Positions 4,393 through 35,501 of a stretch of 35,501 nucleotides of DNA are shown piece after piece (position 1 is the stretch's first letter; each line of letters starts with the position of its first letter). Below the pieces are notes generated by a model. That model saw nothing but the letters and a program-made list of their open reading frames with translations. It had not been told where the DNA came from and made no database searches. Both the position numbers and the translations under genes were made by a program. Source of the DNA: an uncultured Methanosarcinales archaeon (lineage in GTDB: Archaea; Nanobdellota; Nanobdellia; Woesearchaeales; CAZXZL01); NCBI GenBank assembly GCA_964645415.1, contig CAZXZL010000005.1:1-35501 (forward strand). Reading direction: 5' to 3'.

Positions 4393-5124
4393 ATGAAGTT
4401 ATACAAAGATATTTATGGTTTAGAACCTGGTTCAAATACTTTTATCTGTGGTGAATTCGATTCAATAAATATGATTAAAGATTATCTTGATCAAATATCA
4501 TTTAAATTAGAAAATGTATTAGGTAATAACCTTTCTAACTATGATAGAAAAAGAATAAATTTCATGAAAAAACCATTTCATAAAGACTTATATCAAATAA
4601 TTCGTGATGAAAAGATTTATGAAAATGAAGATGAAGTGAGAATAGATAGATATTCAAATATTATTTTAAATCAAGAAAAATATGATGAGTTATTTGAACG
4701 TTTAAACTCATCTTTAGATGAAAAAATTAAAGAAAAAGTTTTTGAAAGATATAATGAAATTAATGATTCAATAAAAAATAATTACTCTTTTAAAATAGAT
4801 GAAGATAATATTTATTATAAATTAAAAACTCATTTAAATAGTAGTTCATATTATCTAAAAGAATCATATTTTGAAGATTATGCATTACCAGTTAATTTAG
4901 ATTCTAATAATTTGAAAAAATTTTATTTAAATCCAAAAGGTAATAAGTATTTACATGATCAATCAGGTTCAATATTATTTAAAAATAAATCAGTTGATGG
5001 TTTAAAGGATTTAATGAAGAATGGAACAAAAATAAAAGATATTTCTTTAAAAAGTAGTATTGTTCCAGAAGTAACTCTTAAATCTAATAAGTATAGTTCT
5101 ATATATGATTATGAATTACTTTAA
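4393..5124 (+). CDS. Family-P paralog 2 (unknown function)
   Basis: The blocks GSNTFICGEFDSINMIKDYLDQISFKLE, YDRKRINFMKKP and LPVNLDSNNLKKFYLNPKGNKYLHDQSGSILFKNKSVDGLKDLMKNGTKI align with paralog 3 at about 50% identity in the C-terminal block. Confidence 0.8.
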   Translation: MKLYKDIYGLEPGSNTFICGEFDSINMIKDYLDQISFKLENVLGNNLSNYDRKRINFMKKPFHKDLYQIIRDEKIYENEDEVRIDRYSNIILNQEKYDELFERLNSSLDEKIKEKVFERYNEINDSIKNNYSFKIDEDNIYYKLKTHLNSSSYYLKESYFEDYALPVNLDSNNLKKFYLNPKGNKYLHDQSGSILFKNKSVDGLKDLMKNGTKIKDISLKSSIVPEVTLKSNKYSSIYDYELL

Positions 5125-5139
5125 TATCTAATTATATTC

Positions 5140-5275
5140 AGATACACCTAAAGAAAACATCTACGTTTTTTTCTAAAGAATGTATCTACGTTTTTTAGCT
5201 AAAGGTTTGCTCTACTCAAAAAAATCTAATTAAAATATCAGGATTTCTTAATATTCTAAATCAGCAGATTTATTC
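5140..5275. repeat. Partial, inverted copy of the dispersed intergenic repeat plus an AAATC-agca-GATTT palindrome
   Basis: The sequence tgtatctacgttttttagctaaagg (5181-5205) is the reverse complement of the cctttagctaaaacgaatacat-type motif seen at 27271/27322/35276. There is a direct repeat atctacgttttt at 5159 and 5184. The 14-mer aaatcagcagattt at 5258-5271 is identical to 15033-15046. Confidence 0.5.
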
Positions 5276-5374
5276 AAATAACATAAAAACATTACAAAAC
5301 AGAAATCCTTTCAATAATGAGTAATAGAAAAAACATATAAATAATATAAATCTTAAAAATAATATTGAGTAAAT

Positions 5375-6607
5375 ATGGTAGAATTAATGTGTCCCGCAGG
5401 GGATATGAAATCATTACAAGCAGCAATTAAAGCAGGTGCCGATTCTGTTTATTTTGGAGTAGGAGATTTAAACATGAGAGCTCGTGCTGCTAAATTTTCA
5501 AATGAAGACCTAAAAAAGATTGTTAAGATATGTAAATCTAATGATGTGAAATCTTATTTAACCTTAAATACAGTAATGTATGATGAAGAGATTGAAGATA
5601 TGAAGAAAATATGTGACAGAGTAAAAAAACTTGGTGTGAGTGCTATAATTGCATCAGATATCTCTGTAATAAAGTATGCAAATTCTATAGACCTTGAAGT
5701 TCATATGTCAACACAAGCAAATATTTCAAATTATGAAGCAGTAAAATTTTATTCAAAATTTGCCGATGTAATTGTATTAGCAAGAGAACTTTCATTAAAT
5801 CAAATAAAAAATATTACTGATAAGATAAAGGAAAATAACTTATGTGGTCCAAATGGTAACTTAATTCAAATTGAAGTTTTTGTTCATGGTGCATTATGTG
5901 TTGCTATTTCAGGAAAATGTTATATGAGCTTGGCTCAATATAATGAATCCGCAAATAGAGGAAAATGTCTTCAAAGTTGTAGAAGAAAATATAAAGTATA
6001 TGACGATGAAACAGGAAAAGAATTGAAAATTGAAAATAACTATGTAATGTCTCCTAGTGATTTATGTACAATAGGTATGATTGATAAACTTATAGAATCA
6101 GGTGTTAATGTTTTTAAAATTGAAGGAAGAGCAAGAGGTCCAAATTATGTTCATACTGTTGTAAGTACCTACAAAAAAGCAATTAACTCTTATTTTAATA
6201 AAAATTATTCTAAATCAAAAATAAAAAAATGGAAAAAAGATTTAAGAAGTGTTTTTAACCGTGGTTTTTGGGAAAATGGTTATTATCAAGGAAAAAAACT
6301 TGGTGAATGGTCTGGAGAATATGGTAGTAAAGCAACTACAAAAAAAGTACAATTAGGAAAAGTACTAAATTATTTTAAAAAACCAAAAATTGCATATATT
6401 GAGATATATTCTAATGAAGTATCTATTGGTGACAAATTATTTGTTACTGGAAATAAAACTGGTTCTGTTTATCAAAAAGTTGAAAGTATATATAATAATG
6501 ATGAAAAACCGATTAAAAAAGCAAATAAAGGAACTAAAGTGACAATCCCTATTAATGAGACTGTAAGAAAGAATGATGAAGTTTATAAAATAATAAAAAA
6601 AGAATGA
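5375..6607 (+). CDS. Peptidase U32 family protein
   Basis: The N-terminus ELMCPAGDMKSLQAAIKAGADSVYFG is typical. EVFVHGALCVAISGKCYMS matches the U32 signature E-x-F-x2-G-[SA]-[LIVM]-C-x4-G-x-C-x-[LIVM]-S. FKIEGRARGPNYV is also present. Confidence 0.9.
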   Translation: MVELMCPAGDMKSLQAAIKAGADSVYFGVGDLNMRARAAKFSNEDLKKIVKICKSNDVKSYLTLNTVMYDEEIEDMKKICDRVKKLGVSAIIASDISVIKYANSIDLEVHMSTQANISNYEAVKFYSKFADVIVLARELSLNQIKNITDKIKENNLCGPNGNLIQIEVFVHGALCVAISGKCYMSLAQYNESANRGKCLQSCRRKYKVYDDETGKELKIENNYVMSPSDLCTIGMIDKLIESGVNVFKIEGRARGPNYVHTVVSTYKKAINSYFNKNYSKSKIKKWKKDLRSVFNRGFWENGYYQGKKLGEWSGEYGSKATTKKVQLGKVLNYFKKPKIAYIEIYSNEVSIGDKLFVTGNKTGSVYQKVESIYNNDEKPIKKANKGTKVTIPINETVRKNDEVYKIIKKE

Positions 6608-6653: not shown

Positions 6654-6689
6654 TAACAAATACCATAGTCAAATAATAAGTTGATAAAC

Positions 6690-7394
6690 ATGGAAATGTT
6701 AAAAGGAAAATACGGATTTTATTATGGTGGTGACACTTTTTTAAGAGGTAAATTTTCTAATTTAAATGAAATTAAAGATTATTTAGATCATGTTTCAACA
6801 GACCTTAAAAAAAGTGACATGATTATTAATTTATCTGAAAATTATGATGATTTGTTTAGTAGCTTAAAAAAACCTCTCTTAAAGAAAATATTTCGTAACT
6901 CTGATAAATTTCTGAATAGTTTCTTTGAAAATTCATTTGATGATGTTGAAACTTTTTTAATCTCAGAAGAAGATTATGATTTACTTTATAAAAACACTAG
7001 TCAAAATTTATATGATAAAGTTTATAATGATATTAAATCCCATTATGATAAAATTAATGATAAACTAAAAAAAGAGTATTCAATGATTTTAAATGATGAT
7101 GAAATTTATTACTCTTTTGATATTAAATTTAATGATTATTCAGATATTTCCTTTAAAGAAAGATTAGGTTTTCCAGTTCTTTTAAACTCTATTGATTATG
7201 ATGAATTTTATCTTATTGAAAAAGGAGATAAAATTGTTCATGATGATAATGGTTCTATCTTATTTAAAGATAAAACAACAAGTGGTTTAGAAGATTTAAT
7301 TAAATTTGGTTCTAAAATAAGTAAGATTAACTCAAAAAAAGATAATCATTTGTCTAAAGAATATGTTGAAGGTATTGATTATATCTCAATCTGA
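6690..7394 (+). CDS. Family-P paralog 3 (unknown function)
   Basis: It contains GGDTFLRGKFSNLNEIKDYLDHVSTDLK, SLKKP and GFPVLLNSIDYDEFYLIEKGDKIVHDDNGSILFKDKTTSGLEDLIKFGSKI. The track starts at TTG 6681. ATG 6690 or 6696 is more likely. Confidence 0.8.
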   Translation: MEMLKGKYGFYYGGDTFLRGKFSNLNEIKDYLDHVSTDLKKSDMIINLSENYDDLFSSLKKPLLKKIFRNSDKFLNSFFENSFDDVETFLISEEDYDLLYKNTSQNLYDKVYNDIKSHYDKINDKLKKEYSMILNDDEIYYSFDIKFNDYSDISFKERLGFPVLLNSIDYDEFYLIEKGDKIVHDDNGSILFKDKTTSGLEDLIKFGSKISKINSKKDNHLSKEYVEGIDYISI

Positions 7395-9158: not shown

Positions 9159-9827
9159 GTGATTAAGCTGAAAAAAATTAAAGAAAAGATAAATCCTGTT
9201 AATAATGGTTCTACTTTTATTTCTGGTATTTACAATGATTTAAATGAATTCTCTTCATATTTGAATGATATCTCTTCTAAAATAGAAGATAAAAATAATG
9301 TTAAATATCCTAATTATAACAAAAAAAGAGTAAGTAAATTAAAAAAACCTTCATTAAATAATATTATTAATTATTCAAAAAATGAAGAAAATATTGATTC
9401 GTTAGAAGAAATTTTAGATGAAAAAAAGTCTGATGAGTTTATGAGTAATCTTAGAAAAAGAGTTAAAGAGGAATTTAACTTGATTTCTGAAATTATTAAA
9501 AAAGATTACTTAATTTCCTTAAATCAGGATAATTTTTATGCATCAGTTGATATTATATATAATGATTTATATTTTGAAAATATTCGATCTATTGAAAATT
9601 ATGGTCTTTTATTAGATTTTAAAAGTAGTGATAATATTGATAAACTTATACTTTTAGAAAATGGGAATAAAAAAGTTTACAAAGATAATTATTCAATTGT
9701 TTTTAAAAATAAAACTGATTTAGGTTTAATTGATTTAATGGAAAAAGGTATTTGGATTGAAGATGAAACTTCAGAAGAAGATAATAATTCAAAGTATAGA
9801 CTTAAAAAAGATTATTCTTTAAGGTAG
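9159..9827 (+). CDS. Family-P paralog 4 (unknown function)
   Basis: It contains NNGSTFISGIYNDLNEFSSYLNDISSKIE, YNKKRVSKLKKP and LILLENGNKKVYKDNYSIVFKNKTDLGLIDLMEKGIWI. The start is uncertain because GTG 9159 lies inside an aaggtgat SD-like string. Confidence 0.75.
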   Translation: MIKLKKIKEKINPVNNGSTFISGIYNDLNEFSSYLNDISSKIEDKNNVKYPNYNKKRVSKLKKPSLNNIINYSKNEENIDSLEEILDEKKSDEFMSNLRKRVKEEFNLISEIIKKDYLISLNQDNFYASVDIIYNDLYFENIRSIENYGLLLDFKSSDNIDKLILLENGNKKVYKDNYSIVFKNKTDLGLIDLMEKGIWIEDETSEEDNNSKYRLKKDYSLR

Positions 9828-10404: not shown

Positions 10405-11016
10405 ATGAGATTAAAAAATAACTATTGTAATTTGGAAGATATCTCTGAGATCTTTGTTTCAGGAATATTCAAAGATTTTAGTGAGATAAATAATTTTCTT
10501 GAAAGTTATGTGAAAAAAATAGAATCAAAAGATAAAAGTAATTATTTAAATGAAGATGATAATTTTAAATTATTAAAAAAAACTTCTTTTTCAATAGATG
10601 ACTTAGTTTCTTTAAATTATAGTTTTAATTTAATTGATGATGATTTAATTAATAATTATAATTTATCAAAAGATATTTCAAATTTATATTACTCTTTTTA
10701 TTTTTACAAAAATAATGATTCCCATTTAGTTGGTACAAAATATGATGAAAGAATAGGTATGAAAATTATCGTTGGTAAGGGTTACATAAATGAATTTTAT
10801 ATTGATAATTATCGAAACTTTATTCTTGATAAAAATGGTAAACAACTTGTTTTTAAAAACAATTCAAAAGAAGCTTTAGAAGATATTATTAACTTTGGAT
10901 TTGATGTTAAAAATAAAGTATCTTTTTTGGGTGATATTATTCCAAAAGAAAAATATAATTATTATGAAGATTACTTTATTCTTAATTGTAAAAGAGAAAA
11001 TATTAAACTAATCTAA
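10405..11016 (+). CDS. Family-P paralog 6 (divergent, 203 aa)
   Basis: It contains IFVSGIFKDFSEINNFLESYVKKIE, FKLLKKTS and FYIDNYRNFILDKNGKQLVFKNNSKEALEDIINFGFDV. It starts 2 nt after the stop of paralog 5. Confidence 0.7.
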   Translation: MRLKNNYCNLEDISEIFVSGIFKDFSEINNFLESYVKKIESKDKSNYLNEDDNFKLLKKTSFSIDDLVSLNYSFNLIDDDLINNYNLSKDISNLYYSFYFYKNNDSHLVGTKYDERIGMKIIVGKGYINEFYIDNYRNFILDKNGKQLVFKNNSKEALEDIINFGFDVKNKVSFLGDIIPKEKYNYYEDYFILNCKRENIKLI

Positions 11017-14803: not shown

Positions 14804-14964
14804 TTTTCAAACTAATGTAAAATTTAGTGTTTAAAAATAGTATTCGTGAATCTTAAAAAATTTAGTCAAATAATCATTTTTGTAAATAAATGAAAGATAG
14901 GTAACATTAGATAGTGATATCTCAATATTAAAAGTTTGTCTTAAATTAATCCCTCTTTTCATCT

Positions 14965-15052
14965 AATTAAAGTTTTATCGGAATTTTATACCTTTTTTAT
15001 TTTGTTTTTATTAATTTCTCTTTTTTATAAACAAATCAGCAGATTTTCTACT
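14965..15052. repeat. Weaker partial copy of the dispersed intergenic repeat, with an AAATC-agca-GATTT palindrome
   Basis: The sequence agttttatcggaattttataccttttttattttgtttttattaatttctcttttttataaacaaatcagcagattttctac aligns by eye (about 65%) with 27190-27270. The 14-mer aaatcagcagattt is identical to 5258-5271. Confidence 0.4.
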
Positions 15053-15245
15053 TTAATATATTTTTAATTAAGTATAAAATTCCTCTTTAAATAATGATAA
15101 TAACAATAAGAGTAATAAAAATAGTAAAAAAATTAAAATTAATAATCCTTATAACAAGACTAAAAAATGAAATAAAAACAAATAAAATTTTATAGAAAAG
15201 TTTTTATAATGTGAATTCATAAAATACTATATGATTGGGTTGGGT

Positions 15246-19215: not shown

Positions 19216-20898
19216 ATGTATTTAAAAAATAAAGTTAATAAAATTAAAGAAAAAGGTAAAGATTATATGAAGAAAGCAGGTTATGGTATTGGTGCTTTAG
19301 CTATAGCAGCTTCATTAATGACTGGTAGTGCTGATGCTAGCAACATCAATGATGATTATCAAAATGAAGTTTTAAATGAGATGAATAATCAAAGTGTTCT
19401 TGAGTTAAGTTATGATAGTTTAGATTTAGAAGATAGAGATAATCTTGAAGACGAAATTAATAATGAAAGTAATAGCTATTCTTATAAAGAATCATTAATT
19501 TTAGATGATTTAAGATCAGATAATCTTTCTGCTATTGAACAATATGAAAGTATTGATAAATGGTTAGATGATATGTATCGTGGAAATTTAAAACCAGCAC
19601 ATTATGAACAAGTTATTGGTAATGAAACATGGATAAAACAATTATCAATTATTGATGGTGATGATGTTAGTTATGATGAAATGAAAGATACTCTTCAAAG
19701 TAAATACGATAGAGCATTAAGAAGAGAAAGAAGAGAGAGAGATTTAGATCGAGATGAAAGAGATAGTCCTGAAGTAACAAAATGGAGAGATCTAGATACA
19801 GACGAAATTTTAGAAAGATTAGATGAACTAGATACTGATGAAGATTTAGAAGAAATTGTAGATGATGAAAAAATCGAAAAACCTACACCAGATAAAGTAT
19901 ATGAACCTGACTTAGATGAAGAAAAAGAAGATTATAAAGTAGATGATACATATGAACCTACAGAAGATCCTGATGATGAATATGTTGTTGATACTACTGA
20001 TGATGAAATTGAAGATGATAATGATTATGATCCAATCGAAGAAGATCCTAGTGATTTAGAAGAAATTCTTGATGAAGAAAAAGAAGTAGAAAGAAAATCT
20101 GATATTAATAGAAATTATGTGAGTTTTGAATATGGTCAAAATCAAGGTGCAGGAACTAGCGATATTTATGATACAACTGGTGATGGTGTAACTTTTGAGT
20201 ATGATCAATCAAGTGAAAAAAATATTGAAGTTGGATTTGAAATTCCTGATACTGATTTTAATGTTAGTGGATCATATTTTAGTCGAGATTTAGAAGGAGA
20301 TATGGTTTATGGAATTGATACTGATAATGAGATGGAAGTAGGAGATGCGACTAAAAATCAAACATTACTTTCTCTTGGTGTTGGATATGATTTTGATGAA
20401 AACTTAAATACATCAATTGGAGTAAATAAATATGATGAAGAGAAAATAGCAAACTTTGAAGATGATGATAGAGATTATACATTTGAAGACTCAGATATCA
20501 TCCCAGAAGTAAATGTTAGACAAATTATAGATATTAATGACTCAGATGAACTTGCTTTAGAAGGAACTTTAGATTATTCAACCTCTGATTCAGAATTAGG
20601 TTTTAGATTAGGAGGAGATTATTATTTTGGAGATAATAGAGTTGGATTAGATTTTGATAACACTAAAGTATCAGATAGATTAAATGAAAGAAGTATGAGT
20701 ATTAGTGCTGATAGAACATTTAATGATGATTATAATGTTGGTGTTAGTTATAATAAGTCTTTAGAAGATGATGTTGGAGATAGTATTGGAATTAATGCAA
20801 GTTACACATATGAGGATTTAATGTTAAAATTTGGTGTAGATAGAGGTATTGATGATGATGAACTTGAATCTATACTTGGACTCGAATTAAGTTTTTAA
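19216..20898 (+). CDS. Secreted protein: signal peptide, N-terminal domain, highly acidic linker and C-terminal porin-like beta-rich domain (family B member 2)
   Basis: The signal KKAGYGIGALAIAASLMTGSADASN has an A-x-A-like site. The D/E-rich linker spans about aa 170-295. The C-terminal approx. 260 aa align with the 16802 gene (IYDTTGDGVTFEYD, GDMVYG, EKIANFEDDDRDY, GVSYNKSLEDD). It ends in ESILGLELSF, with a terminal Phe. Confidence 0.8.
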   Translation: MYLKNKVNKIKEKGKDYMKKAGYGIGALAIAASLMTGSADASNINDDYQNEVLNEMNNQSVLELSYDSLDLEDRDNLEDEINNESNSYSYKESLILDDLRSDNLSAIEQYESIDKWLDDMYRGNLKPAHYEQVIGNETWIKQLSIIDGDDVSYDEMKDTLQSKYDRALRRERRERDLDRDERDSPEVTKWRDLDTDEILERLDELDTDEDLEEIVDDEKIEKPTPDKVYEPDLDEEKEDYKVDDTYEPTEDPDDEYVVDTTDDEIEDDNDYDPIEEDPSDLEEILDEEKEVERKSDINRNYVSFEYGQNQGAGTSDIYDTTGDGVTFEYDQSSEKNIEVGFEIPDTDFNVSGSYFSRDLEGDMVYGIDTDNEMEVGDATKNQTLLSLGVGYDFDENLNTSIGVNKYDEEKIANFEDDDRDYTFEDSDIIPEVNVRQIIDINDSDELALEGTLDYSTSDSELGFRLGGDYYFGDNRVGLDFDNTKVSDRLNERSMSISADRTFNDDYNVGVSYNKSLEDDVGDSIGINASYTYEDLMLKFGVDRGIDDDELESILGLELSF

Positions 20899-20957
20899 CT
20901 TGTTTTAATTTTTTATAAAAAGTTTTATTTAGATGTGAGTATATAAATGTTAAAATG
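20806..20957 (+). repeat. Direct repeat copy 1 (last 30 codons of the 19216 gene, its 3' flank and the next start codon)
   Basis: It aligns by eye at about 90% identity with 23802-23957 (acatatgaggatttaatgttaaaatttggtgtagatagaggtattgat...ttaagtttttaacttgttttaattttttataaaaagtttta...). Confidence 0.9.
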
Positions 20958-22475: not shown

Positions 22476-23894
22476 ATGTCTTTAAAAAAGATAATAGATG
22501 ATACTGGTGTAAAAAAAGCTTATATTAGAAATGGTGATATTAAAAAAGAAAATAATATTTTTGATAAAATAAAAAATCTAAACCCATTTAATGATCAACC
22601 TGATATAATATATTCTAATGATCCTATTGAATCAAAAAATTCTATTAAAAGATATTATAATGATAATGAAGTTCACTATAAAAAAAAATCTACTCTTGAA
22701 GGTTTAATAGAATATAATGAATTATCATATGAAAATAAATCAGATAATAAATATGGTTATAAATTAAAAACTCAATTAGATTTACTTAAAAAGTATTATG
22801 AGAACTCAGTATCTGACATTGATTTATCAAACCATACTGATGTACTAAAGAGATTTTATCATCTTAATACATGGAAATCAAGAGTAGAATATATAAACCT
22901 TTTAAAAGATTCAATTCCTGAAAAATTAATTTCTGATATGTATGTGATTATTATGAGTAATAACTATGTTAAGAAAAAGATATTAGATAATGAAAGCATT
23001 TATTCAAATTTAGAAAATATAAAAGATTCAATTAATTTTTATCAACATGAATTAAAAAATTACAATACTTTAGAGATTGTTAATTATTTTAAAAATCGAA
23101 TAAAACATAATTCTAATGATTTAAATATTGATGACTTAGAACTTGAATATAAAAAAGGTTATAATTGGAGTAATTACTTTAAAGAGATAGATAATCTTGA
23201 AATTGATTTTAATGAAAAAAGATTACTTTTTTCAATTTTAGGAGATAATTCATCATTAGAGGGATATTATAATGGAATTAAAAAAAAAGTTGACCAAATA
23301 ATTTCTAAAGAAGGTTCTTTAGAGGAATTAATAGAAGAATTTGAATGTCTAAAGGAAAAAGAAGACATGTCCAATCTTATGGAAGATTACTTAAAAGATT
23401 TAATTAGTTATCATATAGATGGTTTTGATAATGAATATTCTGAAAATAAAGTTAAAAAATATTTTAGTAGTCTAAAAAATAATTTTAAAAATAAGTTAAA
23501 AAGTCTTTCTAATGTTAAAAAAATTAACCCTATAAAAAAACTAAAATCAATATATGATAATAAAAATAAAAGTAATTTATCAAAAAAATATAAATCTACT
23601 AACTCTATTGAAAATAATAATGAAAAAAATAACTTATCTAATAATTTATCAAGTGATAAAAGTAATATTCTAAATGAAGAAATTAAAAAAGATAATTATG
23701 TTTCAGATAAAATTTCTAAAGAGAAAAGTACTTCTTATAATTATGAATCTGAAAATATTTCATATAATGATGATAAATATAATAGTATTAATACAAATCA
23801 TACATATGAAGACTTAATGTTGAGATTTGGTATAGATAGAGGTATTGATTATGATGAACTTGAATCTATACTTGAACTTGAATTAAGTTTTTAA
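22476..23894 (+). CDS. Hypothetical K/N-rich protein (472 aa) with a grafted family-B C-terminal 30-aa strand module
   Basis: It has no signal peptide and the body is unlike family B. The last 30 aa, TYEDLMLRFGIDRGIDYDELESILELELSF, are near-identical to the C-terminus of the 19216 gene, and the nucleotide repeat continues past the stop. Confidence 0.7.
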   Translation: MSLKKIIDDTGVKKAYIRNGDIKKENNIFDKIKNLNPFNDQPDIIYSNDPIESKNSIKRYYNDNEVHYKKKSTLEGLIEYNELSYENKSDNKYGYKLKTQLDLLKKYYENSVSDIDLSNHTDVLKRFYHLNTWKSRVEYINLLKDSIPEKLISDMYVIIMSNNYVKKKILDNESIYSNLENIKDSINFYQHELKNYNTLEIVNYFKNRIKHNSNDLNIDDLELEYKKGYNWSNYFKEIDNLEIDFNEKRLLFSILGDNSSLEGYYNGIKKKVDQIISKEGSLEELIEEFECLKEKEDMSNLMEDYLKDLISYHIDGFDNEYSENKVKKYFSSLKNNFKNKLKSLSNVKKINPIKKLKSIYDNKNKSNLSKKYKSTNSIENNNEKNNLSNNLSSDKSNILNEEIKKDNYVSDKISKEKSTSYNYESENISYNDDKYNSINTNHTYEDLMLRFGIDRGIDYDELESILELELSF

Positions 23895-23957
23895 CTTATT
23901 TTAATTTTTTATAAAAAGTTTTACTTAATTTGAGTATACAAATTTTAAAATAAAATG
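23802..23957 (+). repeat. Direct repeat copy 2
   Basis: See copy 1. Stop codons are 2996 nt apart, and the following ATGs (20955 and 23955) are exactly 3000 nt apart. Confidence 0.9.
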
Positions 23958-26903: not shown

Positions 26904-27018
26904 TTTAAATATGGTTAAAGTGTCATTATAAAAATACTTTTATTTATTCATTCAATGTTATTCACAATCTTATTTTTATTATTAAATTCATTATGATACT
27001 ACTATTATTTGTATCACT

Positions 27019-27293
27019 TTTAAGTTTCTATTAAATTCTATTTCTTTTTATTTCATTCATATAATTACTTTTTCCTTAGATGATTTGCTCTCAAATTTTA
27101 TCACACTTTTAAATTTGTAATTTAATAAGTTCTATAAATTTTTGATTTTAGTAATTTGATAAGGATGGTACCATATTTCATATGGCACTTTAGTTCCTAT
27201 AAATTTCGATTTCTTTTTGTTTCTATTTTTATTAATATTTTTTTATTTAGATGATTTTGATTTCTAATTTCTTTAGCTGATACGAAGATTATT
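27019..27293 (+). repeat. Dispersed intergenic repeat, locus A (two tandem sub-units, A1 approx. 27019-27110 and A2 27158-27287)
   Basis: It is colinear with 35012-35293. The 24-mer taaattctatttctttttatttca (27032-27055) is identical to 35025-35048. A2 and B2 are both 130 nt and about 75-80% identical by eye. A1 is itself a degraded copy of A2 (…tttctattaaattctatttctttttatttca…ttagatgatttg…). Confidence 0.8.
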
Positions 27294-28834: not shown

Positions 28835-28906
28835 AGCAGGTGGGGGGACTCGAACCCCCGATCGTTGGGTTGCAGCCAACTGCCTTAGCCGCTTGGCCAC
28901 ACCTGC
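28835..28906 (-). tRNA. tRNA-Cys: tRNA-Cys (anticodon GCA)
   Basis: This is a GC-rich island. The reverse complement GCAGGTG-TG-GCCA-AGCGGCTAA-GGCA-G-GTTGG-CTGCAAC-CCAAC-GATC-GGGGG-TTCGAGT-CCCCC-CACCTGC folds as a cloverleaf. It has a 7-bp acceptor stem, a 5-bp anticodon stem, the loop CU-GCA-AC, a GTTCGAGT T-loop and a U discriminator. CCA is not encoded. Confidence 0.9.
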
Positions 28907-34979: not shown

Positions 34980-35011
34980 ACTATAATGAAAAGTACTTTT
35001 GTTTAAATATT

Positions 35012-35293
35012 TGTTGAATTTTTATAAATTCTATTTCTTTTTATTTCAATTTTTATCAATTACTAAAAACAAAGTTTTTAGAATAATTAAAAGTGTAACT
35101 TTTAAAACCAAAAAAAAAGTAAATTTTTTTGAGTATAGAAAAGCTATGCTTTTCGTATAAATTGGTAAGGATGGTACTATACTTTGTATAGCACGGTAGT
35201 TTCTATTAAATTTTATTTCTTTTTGTTTCTTTTTCCATTAGTATTTTTTTTCTTAGATGATTTTGATTTCTACTTCCTTTAGCTAAAACGAAT
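35012..35293 (+). repeat. Dispersed intergenic repeat, locus B (sub-units B1 approx. 35012-35110 and B2 35164-35293)
   Basis: See locus A. It has the same order and orientation and includes the covarying hairpin at 35174-35194. Confidence 0.8.
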
Positions 35294-35348
35294 ACATATT
35301 ACTAAACTAAAGTTTAGAACTTATTAAATTAAAAATTTAAAAGTGACT

Positions 35349-35490
35349 AAAATCAAAGATTTTCTAACTATTGAAAATAAAGTTTTCAAAGCGAAGAAAA
35401 ACAAAGAGTTTTTTATGTTGTTTAAATCAAAGATTTAAAAGGTTAGTGAAATCAAAAGATTTCTCACCTTGAAAAAAACAAAGTTTTTTT
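35349..35490. repeat. Array of mini-palindromes (AAAATC-AAA-GATTTT and AAAAC-AAA-GTTTT types)
   Basis: The units are aaaatcaaagatttt 35349-35363, aaaataaagtttt 35374-35386, aaaaacaaagagttttt approx. 35396-35413, aaatcaaagattt 35424-35436, gaaatcaaaagatttc 35448-35463 and aaaaaaacaaagttttttt 35472-35490. Upstream there are also aaaacaaagtttt 35066-35078 and aaaagtgtaactttt 35089-35103. Confidence 0.7.
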
Positions 35491-35501
35491 CTTAGTTTCG
35501 A

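Follow-up and report, generated by a model that had tools for sequence, protein, structure and literature searches.

A dispersed, mosaic and polar non-coding repeat in the long intergenic spacers of a DPANN archaeon

DPANN archaea have small, tightly packed genomes, and to our knowledge almost nothing has been learned of their transcription control or of any non-coding repeats in them. What, then, is the sequence that recurs in two long intergenic spacers of one such genome, between tatD and pyrB and upstream of aRF1? A preliminary description of this DNA proposed a single colinear element of about 275 bp and offered a small-RNA gene family, a MITE-like relic and a shared regulatory module as candidate explanations. 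The window, by which we mean the whole stretch of 35,501 nucleotides that was analysed, has a GC content of about 22%, and position x in it is position x + 3403 on the 75-kb contig k141_839883 (ENA ERZ27266011). Together with 3.4 kb to its left (L289) and about 20 kb to its right (L095 and L282, two assemblies, with one strain near-identical), it makes up a surveyed region of about 58 kb. The host is a DPANN archaeon (Woese/Pacearchaeota-like), and the two loci in the window are two members of a repeat family. The relatives of its aRF1 are all from Woesearchaeota, Pacearchaeota or Nanoarchaeota MAGs, at no more than 59% identity except for one at 81%. Precomputed Pfam hits agree with the gene names tatD, pyrB/pyrI and aRF1 given earlier. 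The sole Rfam/ARAGORN match in the window is a tRNA-Cys (GCA) at 28835–28906 on the minus strand, with 65% G+C in sharp contrast to the 22% background.

It is worth considering at the outset whether the resemblance between the two spacers is simply that expected of low-complexity, AT-rich DNA. The spacers align without a gap over 135 nt at 82% identity (27152–27286 with 35158–35292), in agreement with the common sub-unit of about 130 nt reported previously, and the 24-mer said to be identical at both loci is so (27032–27055 and 35025–35048). In an all-against-all BLAST comparison of 37 spacers, this pair matched over 119 nt at 83% identity with 77.8 bits; the real matches reached 77.8 and 289 bits, against a maximum of 40.1 bits in ten shuffles of all spacers. 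The 12-mer TAAGGATGGTAC and the 20-mer TTAGATGATTTTGATTTCTA each occur exactly at just the two loci, with 0.07 matches to the latter expected by chance. What speaks for a chance origin is the GC content of about 22%, the ability of shuffled spacers to match at up to 40 bits, and the failure of a leave-out profile, described below, to find the weaker copies. Against it stand the scores of the real matches, the absence of the composite core from the shuffles and the compensatory nature of the changes in the hairpin. Chance is refuted for the main copies, and we allow it next to no probability. Further copies were found and their identity is well above chance, matters on which the preliminary description let its repeat stand or fall; a real repeat family is therefore supported. 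The features of the two loci, and of two weaker members elsewhere in the window, are as follows.

26990–27100, minus strand: degenerate tandem unit c1up, with a hairpin GTGATAC...GTATCAT (27000–27020), an A-rich box that includes the 24-mer (27032–27055) and TTAGATGA (27076–27083); recognised by direct repeats in a register of 169–171 nt, and the fifth unit of the alignment.
27104–27134, no strand assigned: module b, 31 nt, found inverted at 35315–35345 (97% complementary) and also in the ligase spacer.
27152–27286, minus strand: unit c1 (tatD-distal), aligned with four other units; on the minus strand it reads TTCGT, GCTAAAG and TCATCTAA boxes, A-rich BRE/TATA-like box, stem-loop, CATCCTTATCAA.
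27168–27188, minus strand: copy h1 of stem-loop H1, GTGCCATAT-GAA-ATATGGTAC, identified by pairing, covariation and RNAalifold.
27247–27288, plus strand: three-box core TTAGATGA-N15-CTTTAGC-N4-ACGAAGA, identified by the composite pattern; the AT skew flips here.
35025–35048, minus strand: the 24-mer, consisting of the A-rich box and AATTTA, 45–52 nt upstream of the aRF1 ATG and 100% identical to 27032–27055.
35032–35201, minus strand: module C, which matches 170 nt of the spacer upstream of the DNA ligase gene at 96.5% identity; it holds H1, four perfect hairpins (35138–35154, 35112–35130, 35087–35105 and 35063–35081), the proximal A-rich/TATA box and a homopolymer run of 10 T as read on the minus strand.
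35158–35292, minus strand: unit c2, upstream of aRF1, identified by alignment to c1 and the other units.
35174–35194, minus strand: copy h2 of stem-loop H1, GTGCTATAC-AAA-GTATAGTAC; the closing C is an A in strain L282.
35253–35294, plus strand: three-box core TTAGATGA-N15-CTTTAGC-N4-ACGAATA, identified by the composite pattern.
35302–35501, no strand assigned: distal array of eight perfect hairpins of 6–9 bp at a spacing of about 24 nt, which includes module b and extends to about 35545, past the window end.
5159–5236, plus strand: probable degenerate member with ATCTACGT twice, TTTAGCTAAAGG and AAATCTAA, in the spacer 5125–5374 upstream of the peptidase U32 gene at 5375.
14841–15198, plus strand: probable degenerate inverted member with TATTCGT (14841–14847), TCATCTAA (14959–14966) and an A-rich/TATA box (15164–15198).

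When five units are aligned on the minus strand of the window, a common anatomy emerges. The unit is about 135–150 nt long and, read on the strand of the downstream gene, consists of TATTCGT-type repeats, GCTAAAG, TCATCTAA, an A-rich BRE/TATA-like box, a 9-bp stem-loop and CATCCTWAYCAA. More exactly, the minus-strand order is (A/C)TTCGT, GCTAAAG, AAATCAYCTAAG, the A-rich tract GAAAYAAAAAGAAAT, the TATA-like T(T/A)AT(A/G)G(G/A)AA, the stem-loop GTGCCATAY-loop-RTATGGTAC and then (C/T/A)ATCCT(T/A)A(T/C)CAA, with CATCCTTAYCAA as the sequence 3′ of the stem-loop in the general unit. As read from the sequences, a T run follows 53–59 nt 3′ of the stem-loop in four of the five units; in two units (GTTATGGG and TATTATGG) the TATA-like box next to the stem-loop is degenerate. 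The unit is non-coding. No ORF is conserved between copies or strains; a 53-aa ORF at 34999–35160 is frameshifted by a homopolymer indel between strains and copies, and the mini-ORFs that start at the ATG inside TTAGATGA are unrelated in sequence and length, with CTTTAGC and ACGAAT falling in differing frames across copies.

The stem-loop, H1, is the part of the unit with the clearest signs of structure, and the hairpin that had been noticed within the sub-unit is present at both loci (27168–27188 and 35174–35194). Every one of the 36 cells is paired across the four strong copies, and three pairs are changed on both sides, each in a different copy, compensatory changes that are drawn from just four or five copies; template-switch mutation could be an alternative keeper of perfect palindromes and could mimic such change. 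The third pair is G.U in every copy and would be an A/C mismatch on the other strand, and the H1 helix is therefore complete on the minus strand only. The informative strand is thus the opposite of the one used in the preliminary description. RNAalifold finds H1 to be the sole conserved helix in the unit on either strand, and the folding of the tatD copy is no better than that of shuffles (z = +0.2). Copies of H1 lie 169–247 nt apart.

The arrangement of these parts differs from that first proposed, in that no single colinear 275-bp element exists; the repeat is instead a mosaic whose modules vary in order and orientation. The internal tandem duplication attributed to both loci is clear in the tatD–pyrB spacer, where a period of 169–171 nt relates 27019–27053 to 27188–27222 (80%) and, as a second match in register, 27062–27086 to 27233–27257 (80%), and where a degraded upstream sub-unit can be recognised, its degenerate hairpin lying at 27000–27020. 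It is only partial in the aRF1 spacer, where the duplication amounts to a 28-nt box (35025–35052 and 35207–35234, 86%) and the remainder of the supposed upstream copy is a different module, a hairpin array common to the ligase spacer. Two independent Logan contigs (L097 and L098) end at window position 35061, about 30 nt inside the module common to the ligase spacer, the behaviour expected when a k-mer assembly runs into a repeat; the 170-nt repeat thus breaks k-mer or short-read assemblies. A 10-nt palindrome, TTTAGCTAAA, occurs at window positions 5194, 22278, 27323 and 35278, four times against 0.18 expected, and three of the four occurrences are in repeat-family spacers.

With the two loci included, family modules occur in at least seven spacers within the surveyed 58 kb, about one per 8 kb. 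Of the eight spacers in this region that exceed 200 nt, six carry them, and they account for most of the unusually long spacers. The third strong copy, the 170-nt match to module C, is in the spacer upstream of the DNA ligase gene about 7.7 kb past the window, and this spacer also holds a second stem-loop copy and an inverted module b. To the left of the window, the MscS–PGM spacer (L289 2131–2385) has a 41-nt box at 93% and a fifth stem-loop, and the contig start (L289 1–183) has TATTCGT, TCATCTAA and a 9-bp hairpin. Two weak partial copies had also been pointed out within the window. The inverted one at 5140–5275 is upheld by short motifs, TTAGATTT-N19-CTTTAGC-N5-ACGTAGA followed by a second ACGTAGA. 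At the other, 14965–15052, the spacer 14804–15230 does carry family boxes, with TTAGATGA on the minus strand at 14966–14959 and a 35-nt box at 15164–15198 that is 89% complementary to 35200–35234 and lies 33 nt upstream of the HTH gene at 15231, and the orientation is inverted rather than colinear. A profile built without the copies in 5125–5374 and 14804–15230 recovered neither, so that their assignment comes down to the short motifs; we regard both spacers as probable, not proven, members of the family.

Other repeated or unusual sequences were seen in the same region. A 148-nt direct repeat (89%) at window positions 20784–20931 and 23780–23927 covers the 3′ ends of two large Pfam-less proteins (19216–20898 and 22476–23894) and spans the promoter regions of the following small genes (20955 and 23955); the arrangement looks like the duplication of a gene pair. 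Four Pfam-less proteins of about 200–240 aa (4393–5124, 6681–7394, 9159–9827 and 10405–11016) form an apparent local paralogue family, their C-terminal DNA being 72–75% identical at 4968–5024, 7253–7309, 9692–9748 and 10852–10898. A divergent spacer of 569 nt beyond the window (L282 20664–21232), also long in the relative MAG (476 nt), carries no family modules; it has a G+C-richer patch and a repeated 20-mer common to the neighbouring spacer, and may harbour a structured RNA. On the sense strand of an FKBP-like gene (L282 8300–8327), likewise beyond the window, a 28-nt match to the TCATCTAA region (96%) was rejected as a family copy: it falls in a Lys/Ser-rich low-complexity tail and is probably a compositional coincidence.

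Two of the spacers also contain hairpins in numbers far beyond expectation. Counting as perfect any hairpin with a stem of at least 6 bp and a loop of 3–5 nt, the aRF1 spacer has 15, about 24 nt apart, against 3.0 ± 1.5 expected, and the ligase spacer has nine against 1.6; they are the sole hairpin outliers among 600-nt windows across 55 kb, with the aRF1 spacer at the top, and the tatD–pyrB spacer shows no hairpin enrichment. Such arrays invite the suggestion that the family acts as DNA, as an array of protein-binding sites that might serve as an operator or upstream activating region, as chromatin-protein sites, or as a partition or origin-like site, with a protein reading the boxes and palindromes in the double-stranded DNA. 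The regular spacing of the 15 short palindromes in the aRF1 spacer would suit this, as would the ACGAATA motifs of a relative, which recur every 20–22 bp or about two helical turns, the two inverted cores that flank the spacer interior in relative L286, and the position of the units immediately upstream of core promoters. It is harder to reconcile with the palindromes themselves, which differ in sequence yet pair perfectly, one hairpin changing both arms complementarily, and which therefore fit a folded strand better than the recognition sequence of one protein. The motif spacing is also not constant between copies, and the presence of seven sites in 58 kb with no Orc1/Cdc6 nearby speaks against origins. 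On balance we find a binding array improbable.

It is informative to examine the orientation of the family in light of the genes around it. The strand on which H1 has its G.U pair is the gene strand in six of six spacers between co-directional genes (one-sided binomial p = 0.016), five of them in this genome (L289 2131–2385; window 5125–5374, 14804–15230 and 34980–35560; and the TsaD–ligase spacer) and the sixth the ligase–epimerase spacer of a relative. The AT skew reverses at the TTAGATGA box in every instance; on the strand leading outward from the core each arm is rich in A, like the coding strands of the genome.

An independent small RNA on the plus strand, the strand used in the preliminary description, could be imagined to start near TTAGATGA, to take in CTTTAGC and the ACGAAKA repeats and to end at the T run that comes next. 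Such an RNA would be served by a TATA-like box 9–16 nt before TTAGATGA in the window copies and in relatives, by an arm downstream of that box which is A-rich and free of any run of five or more T for about 125–150 nt, and by the fact that TTAGATGAAGGCGAA is the best-conserved stretch in relatives. It would also run head-on into the 3′ end of a gene in four of nine instances, its arm has no conserved structure, the stem-loop has its A/C mismatch in every copy on that strand, and the sequence upstream of the TATA is T-rich, unlike the A-rich BRE of this genome. We think a plus-strand RNA very doubtful, and both it and a binding array are less likely than the two readings that follow.

The reading that we favour, tentatively and at somewhat under an even chance, is that this polar, modular repeat is a promoter-plus-stem-loop cassette or short non-coding RNA unit that has spread by duplication or gene conversion. 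Each unit would be transcribed in the direction of the downstream gene, the upstream boxes acting as promoter-upstream sites, and would give a short non-coding RNA or an upstream leader whose stem-loop is kept by selection; duplication or gene conversion would both spread and homogenise the family. This reading is suggested by the polarity, by the strand-specific compensatory helix and by A-rich TATA-like boxes that resemble the promoter consensus of the genome. That consensus, AAAAATTTATAAAT, lies 35–65 nt before the ATG, as learned from 44 other genes of the genome. With the resulting matrix, the A-rich TATA-like box after TCATCTAA in unit c1 scores 8.5, and most TATA-like boxes of the family score below 7. 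Against a cassette, the start predicted from the TATA-like box proximal to the stem-loop would fall inside the stem-loop.

The cassette would lie upstream of the conserved promoters of the genes themselves and be distinct from them, and comparison with relatives is consistent with this. In two relatives whose PyrB is 94% and 83% identical, the tatD–pyrB spacer is also long (601 and 748 nt). About 45 nt at each end is conserved across species, one end holding the tatD TATA region and the other the pyrB TATA together with a GGTGG ribosome-binding site, and the interior is unrelated even where PyrB is 94% identical. Judged by this conservation, the repeat is not needed as the tatD or pyrB promoter, because the predicted promoters sit in the conserved ends and the interior is replaced.

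How far, then, does the family extend? Related forms of the three-box core are kept by the two nearest relatives only. The composite pattern has two matches in the window and none in shuffles. The ordered core TTAGATGA-N10-25-CTTTAGC-N3-8-ACGAAKA, a pattern defined from the two window copies, has two matches in the MAG of the 83% relative (L283, GCA_048623255.1) and occurs nowhere else among 288 loci beyond that MAG and this genome, again with none in shuffles. Both that MAG and the 94% relative have related cores, TTAGATGAAGGCGAA and so on, followed by ACGAATA repeats, which are spaced 20–22 nt apart in the MAG of the 83% relative. With nhmmer, a core profile gave no significant match in 80 other DPANN loci (about 0.8 Mb) or in a more distant pyrB locus. 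A profile made from the relatives only did not recover the window copies, and the link across species is therefore one of three ordered boxes, synteny and the skew switch. Searches of public genome contigs for the exact 20-mer returned only chance bacterial matches, and a degenerate hairpin pattern in genome, metagenome and viral contigs gave no AT-rich archaeal locus and no palindromic interior; the family is therefore either absent from those collections or too diverged for an exact-pattern search.

The same comparisons show rapid change. Copies within the genome are 82–96% alike, and the same spacer in a sister species keeps short boxes only. The TsaD–ligase gap is 24 nt in GCA_048623255.1 and 490 nt here, so the ligase copy is absent there, and that MAG has a dispersed 60-nt hairpin module of its own; no clean junction separates the filled from the empty TsaD–ligase site, since the whole spacer differs. 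The region upstream of aRF1 in the closest relative keeps just a 22-nt palindrome. In its tatD–pyrB spacer (L285 2249–2425), that relative has its own 55-nt tandem repeat, two copies with 92% matches, rich in TAAACGAAT. Over 9.6 kb, the assemblies L282 and L095 differ in four places, all within the 581-nt aRF1 spacer and one of them in the pair that closes the stem-loop. The window differs from two other assemblies of this genome at 35110, 35174, 35248 and 35446 (and 32156), nearly all in the aRF1 spacer; there the differences are an indel in a homopolymer, the closing-pair change and two SNPs, with the flanking genes identical over several kb. One strain has an extra stretch of about 42 nt in the TsaD–ligase spacer (L282 9632–9673), which duplicates the ACTAAAGTTTAGAA palindrome module. 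The replaced tatD–pyrB interior, the missing ligase copy and the confinement of the four L282–L095 differences to the aRF1 spacer all fit weak constraint. Taken together, the family is a dispersed, mosaic, polar, non-coding intergenic repeat of a small clade, with fast turnover between genomes.

A repeat with these habits may have no host function at all, and a selfish, non-autonomous element like REP/BIME, BOX or MITE is the main rival to a cassette. A recombinase or transposase encoded elsewhere would recognise its hairpin and boxes, and its copies would decay after inserting into AT-rich spacers or converting them. Turnover, presence or absence and strain variation would be explained equally well by either reading. 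The contrast between high identity within the genome and turnover between species suits a selfish element, as do the varying presence at orthologous sites, the mosaic modules in both orientations, the concentration of the 42-nt indel and of SNPs between strains in repeat spacers, and the different dispersed module owned by a relative. The conserved hairpin mismatch, moreover, resembles the strand-specific hairpins of IS200/IS605 and REP. An inverted-repeat search of the three strong spacers found no terminal inverted repeats where units or modules end, the two ends of the 135-nt unit lack complementarity, and no direct repeats flank the units, so that the hallmarks of a MITE, one of the candidates first offered, were looked for and not found. 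Nor is there a transposase, Y1/RAYT, integrase or reverse transcriptase among the Pfam hits in about 58 kb. The agreement of orientation with the downstream gene in six of six spacers, together with the boxes kept at tatD–pyrB in three species, suggests selection. A selfish repeat seems to us possible, if on the doubtful side.

If the cassette is read more ambitiously, the units would constitute a new clade-specific family of non-coding RNAs (about 125–140 nt) or of promoter-upstream transcripts, with the hairpin arrays as a new cis element. We consider this proposal unlikely. The RNA would have conserved boxes of its own upstream, a stem-loop at the 5′ end and, in single-stranded form, the conserved stretch CAUCCUUAYCAA. 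This stretch is similar to the pyrimidine-rich 3′ tail of 16S rRNA and might base-pair with the purine-rich regions that bind ribosomes; the arrays of perfect hairpins with a 24-nt period might act, for example, as transcription insulators in compact DPANN genomes. Were the family transcribed, it would give a first means of approaching the small RNAs or promoter architecture of this lineage; were it selfish, even reduced genomes of the episymbiont type would be seen to tolerate fast-evolving repeats.

Several known classes of elements can be set aside. Only the tRNA-Cys reached an Rfam gathering score in the window, and in a permissive scan of three spacers the best E values were 1.5–4.2, far below gathering scores; one of these matches, to snoZ103 (E = 4.2), had 15.9 bits where the gathering score is 44. 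C/D box sRNAs have a C box RUGAUGA, a D box CUGA and C′/D′ boxes within about 50–60 nt; here the first box is UAGAUGA, and CUGA is present in copy 1 only, copy 2 having CUAA. CRISPR arrays have identical repeats and unique spacers of constant length; the hairpins here differ in sequence and follow no regular repeat–spacer pattern. Archaeal origins have ORB repeats that flank an unwinding region, usually by orc1/cdc6, and number one to few per genome; here seven loci lie within 58 kb, the genes next to them encode no Orc1/Cdc6 domain, and the cumulative GC skew does not reverse within the window. In DGRs the repeats differ at template adenines only, the variable repeat lies in a gene and a reverse transcriptase is nearby; the mismatches here are of all kinds, both copies are intergenic and no reverse transcriptase was found. 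No bacterial-type intrinsic terminators were found either. Archaeal small-RNA genes belong among the nearer comparisons. Such a gene has a promoter of its own, a defined 3′ end, conserved structure and a transcript that can be detected; the repeat shares a possible promoter box, a compensatory stem-loop, a conserved single-stranded stretch and a T run, and it differs in having no Rfam family, one helix only and rapid turnover between species.

Mobile and modular repeats come closer. At the ends of IS200/IS605 elements, as in REP/RAYT systems, an imperfect palindrome whose mismatch is conserved stands beside a conserved single-stranded motif, and only one strand is read; the conserved hairpin mismatch and flanking motif described here are likewise strand-specific. 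Unlike those of IS200/IS605, the hairpins stand in direct rather than inverted pairs, their orientation follows transcription and not replication, and no Y1 transposase or TnpB gene is near them. BOX elements are modular stem-loop repeats of Streptococcus pneumoniae. Like these and the enterobacterial BIMEs, the repeat is dispersed, non-coding and intergenic, is built of modules that include stem-loops and vary in number, order and orientation, and is similar within a genome and lineage-specific.

MITEs carry terminal inverted repeats of about 4–30 bp at their ends, and those described from archaea come from Sulfolobus, haloarchaea and few others, none from DPANN (PMC10969869). The family has MITE-like traits, in that its units are 135–170 nt long and thus below 500 bp, multi-copy, AT-rich and intergenic, in seven spacers in about 58 kb; terminal inverted repeats and target-site duplications were not found. 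Correia elements and other promoter-bearing MITEs are shorter than 500 bp, AT-rich, multi-copy and mostly just upstream of genes (PMC10969869). The repeat resembles the Correia elements of Neisseria in being short, AT-rich and upstream of genes, with promoter-like sequence and stem-loops, and differs in lacking their defining terminal inverted repeats and target-site duplications. REPs are G+C-rich stem-loops present in hundreds of copies (PMC3184786); the stems here are A/T-rich, and no gene of the RAYT (Y1 transposase) type, which in those systems is flanked by REPs, was seen in the 58 kb examined. The mosaic structure of REP/BIME is matched, with H1 occurring five times with its conserved G.T and modules b and C varying in order and orientation. 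Thus the definitions of MITE, REP/BIME, C/D box RNA, CRISPR, DGR and origin each disagree with the repeat in at least one tested feature. Repeats of the BOX/BIME type have been reported to affect nearby expression (PMC3184786, PMC10969869). The repeat described here differs from them in being archaeal and extremely AT-rich, in bearing an archaeal BRE/TATA-like box, and in its fixed polarity and its place upstream of gene starts, where those repeats lie between convergent genes or in 3′ regions. By analogy, nonetheless, its closest counterparts are the pneumococcal BOX elements, the enterobacterial BIMEs and the promoter-bearing Correia elements (PMC3184786, PMC10969869).
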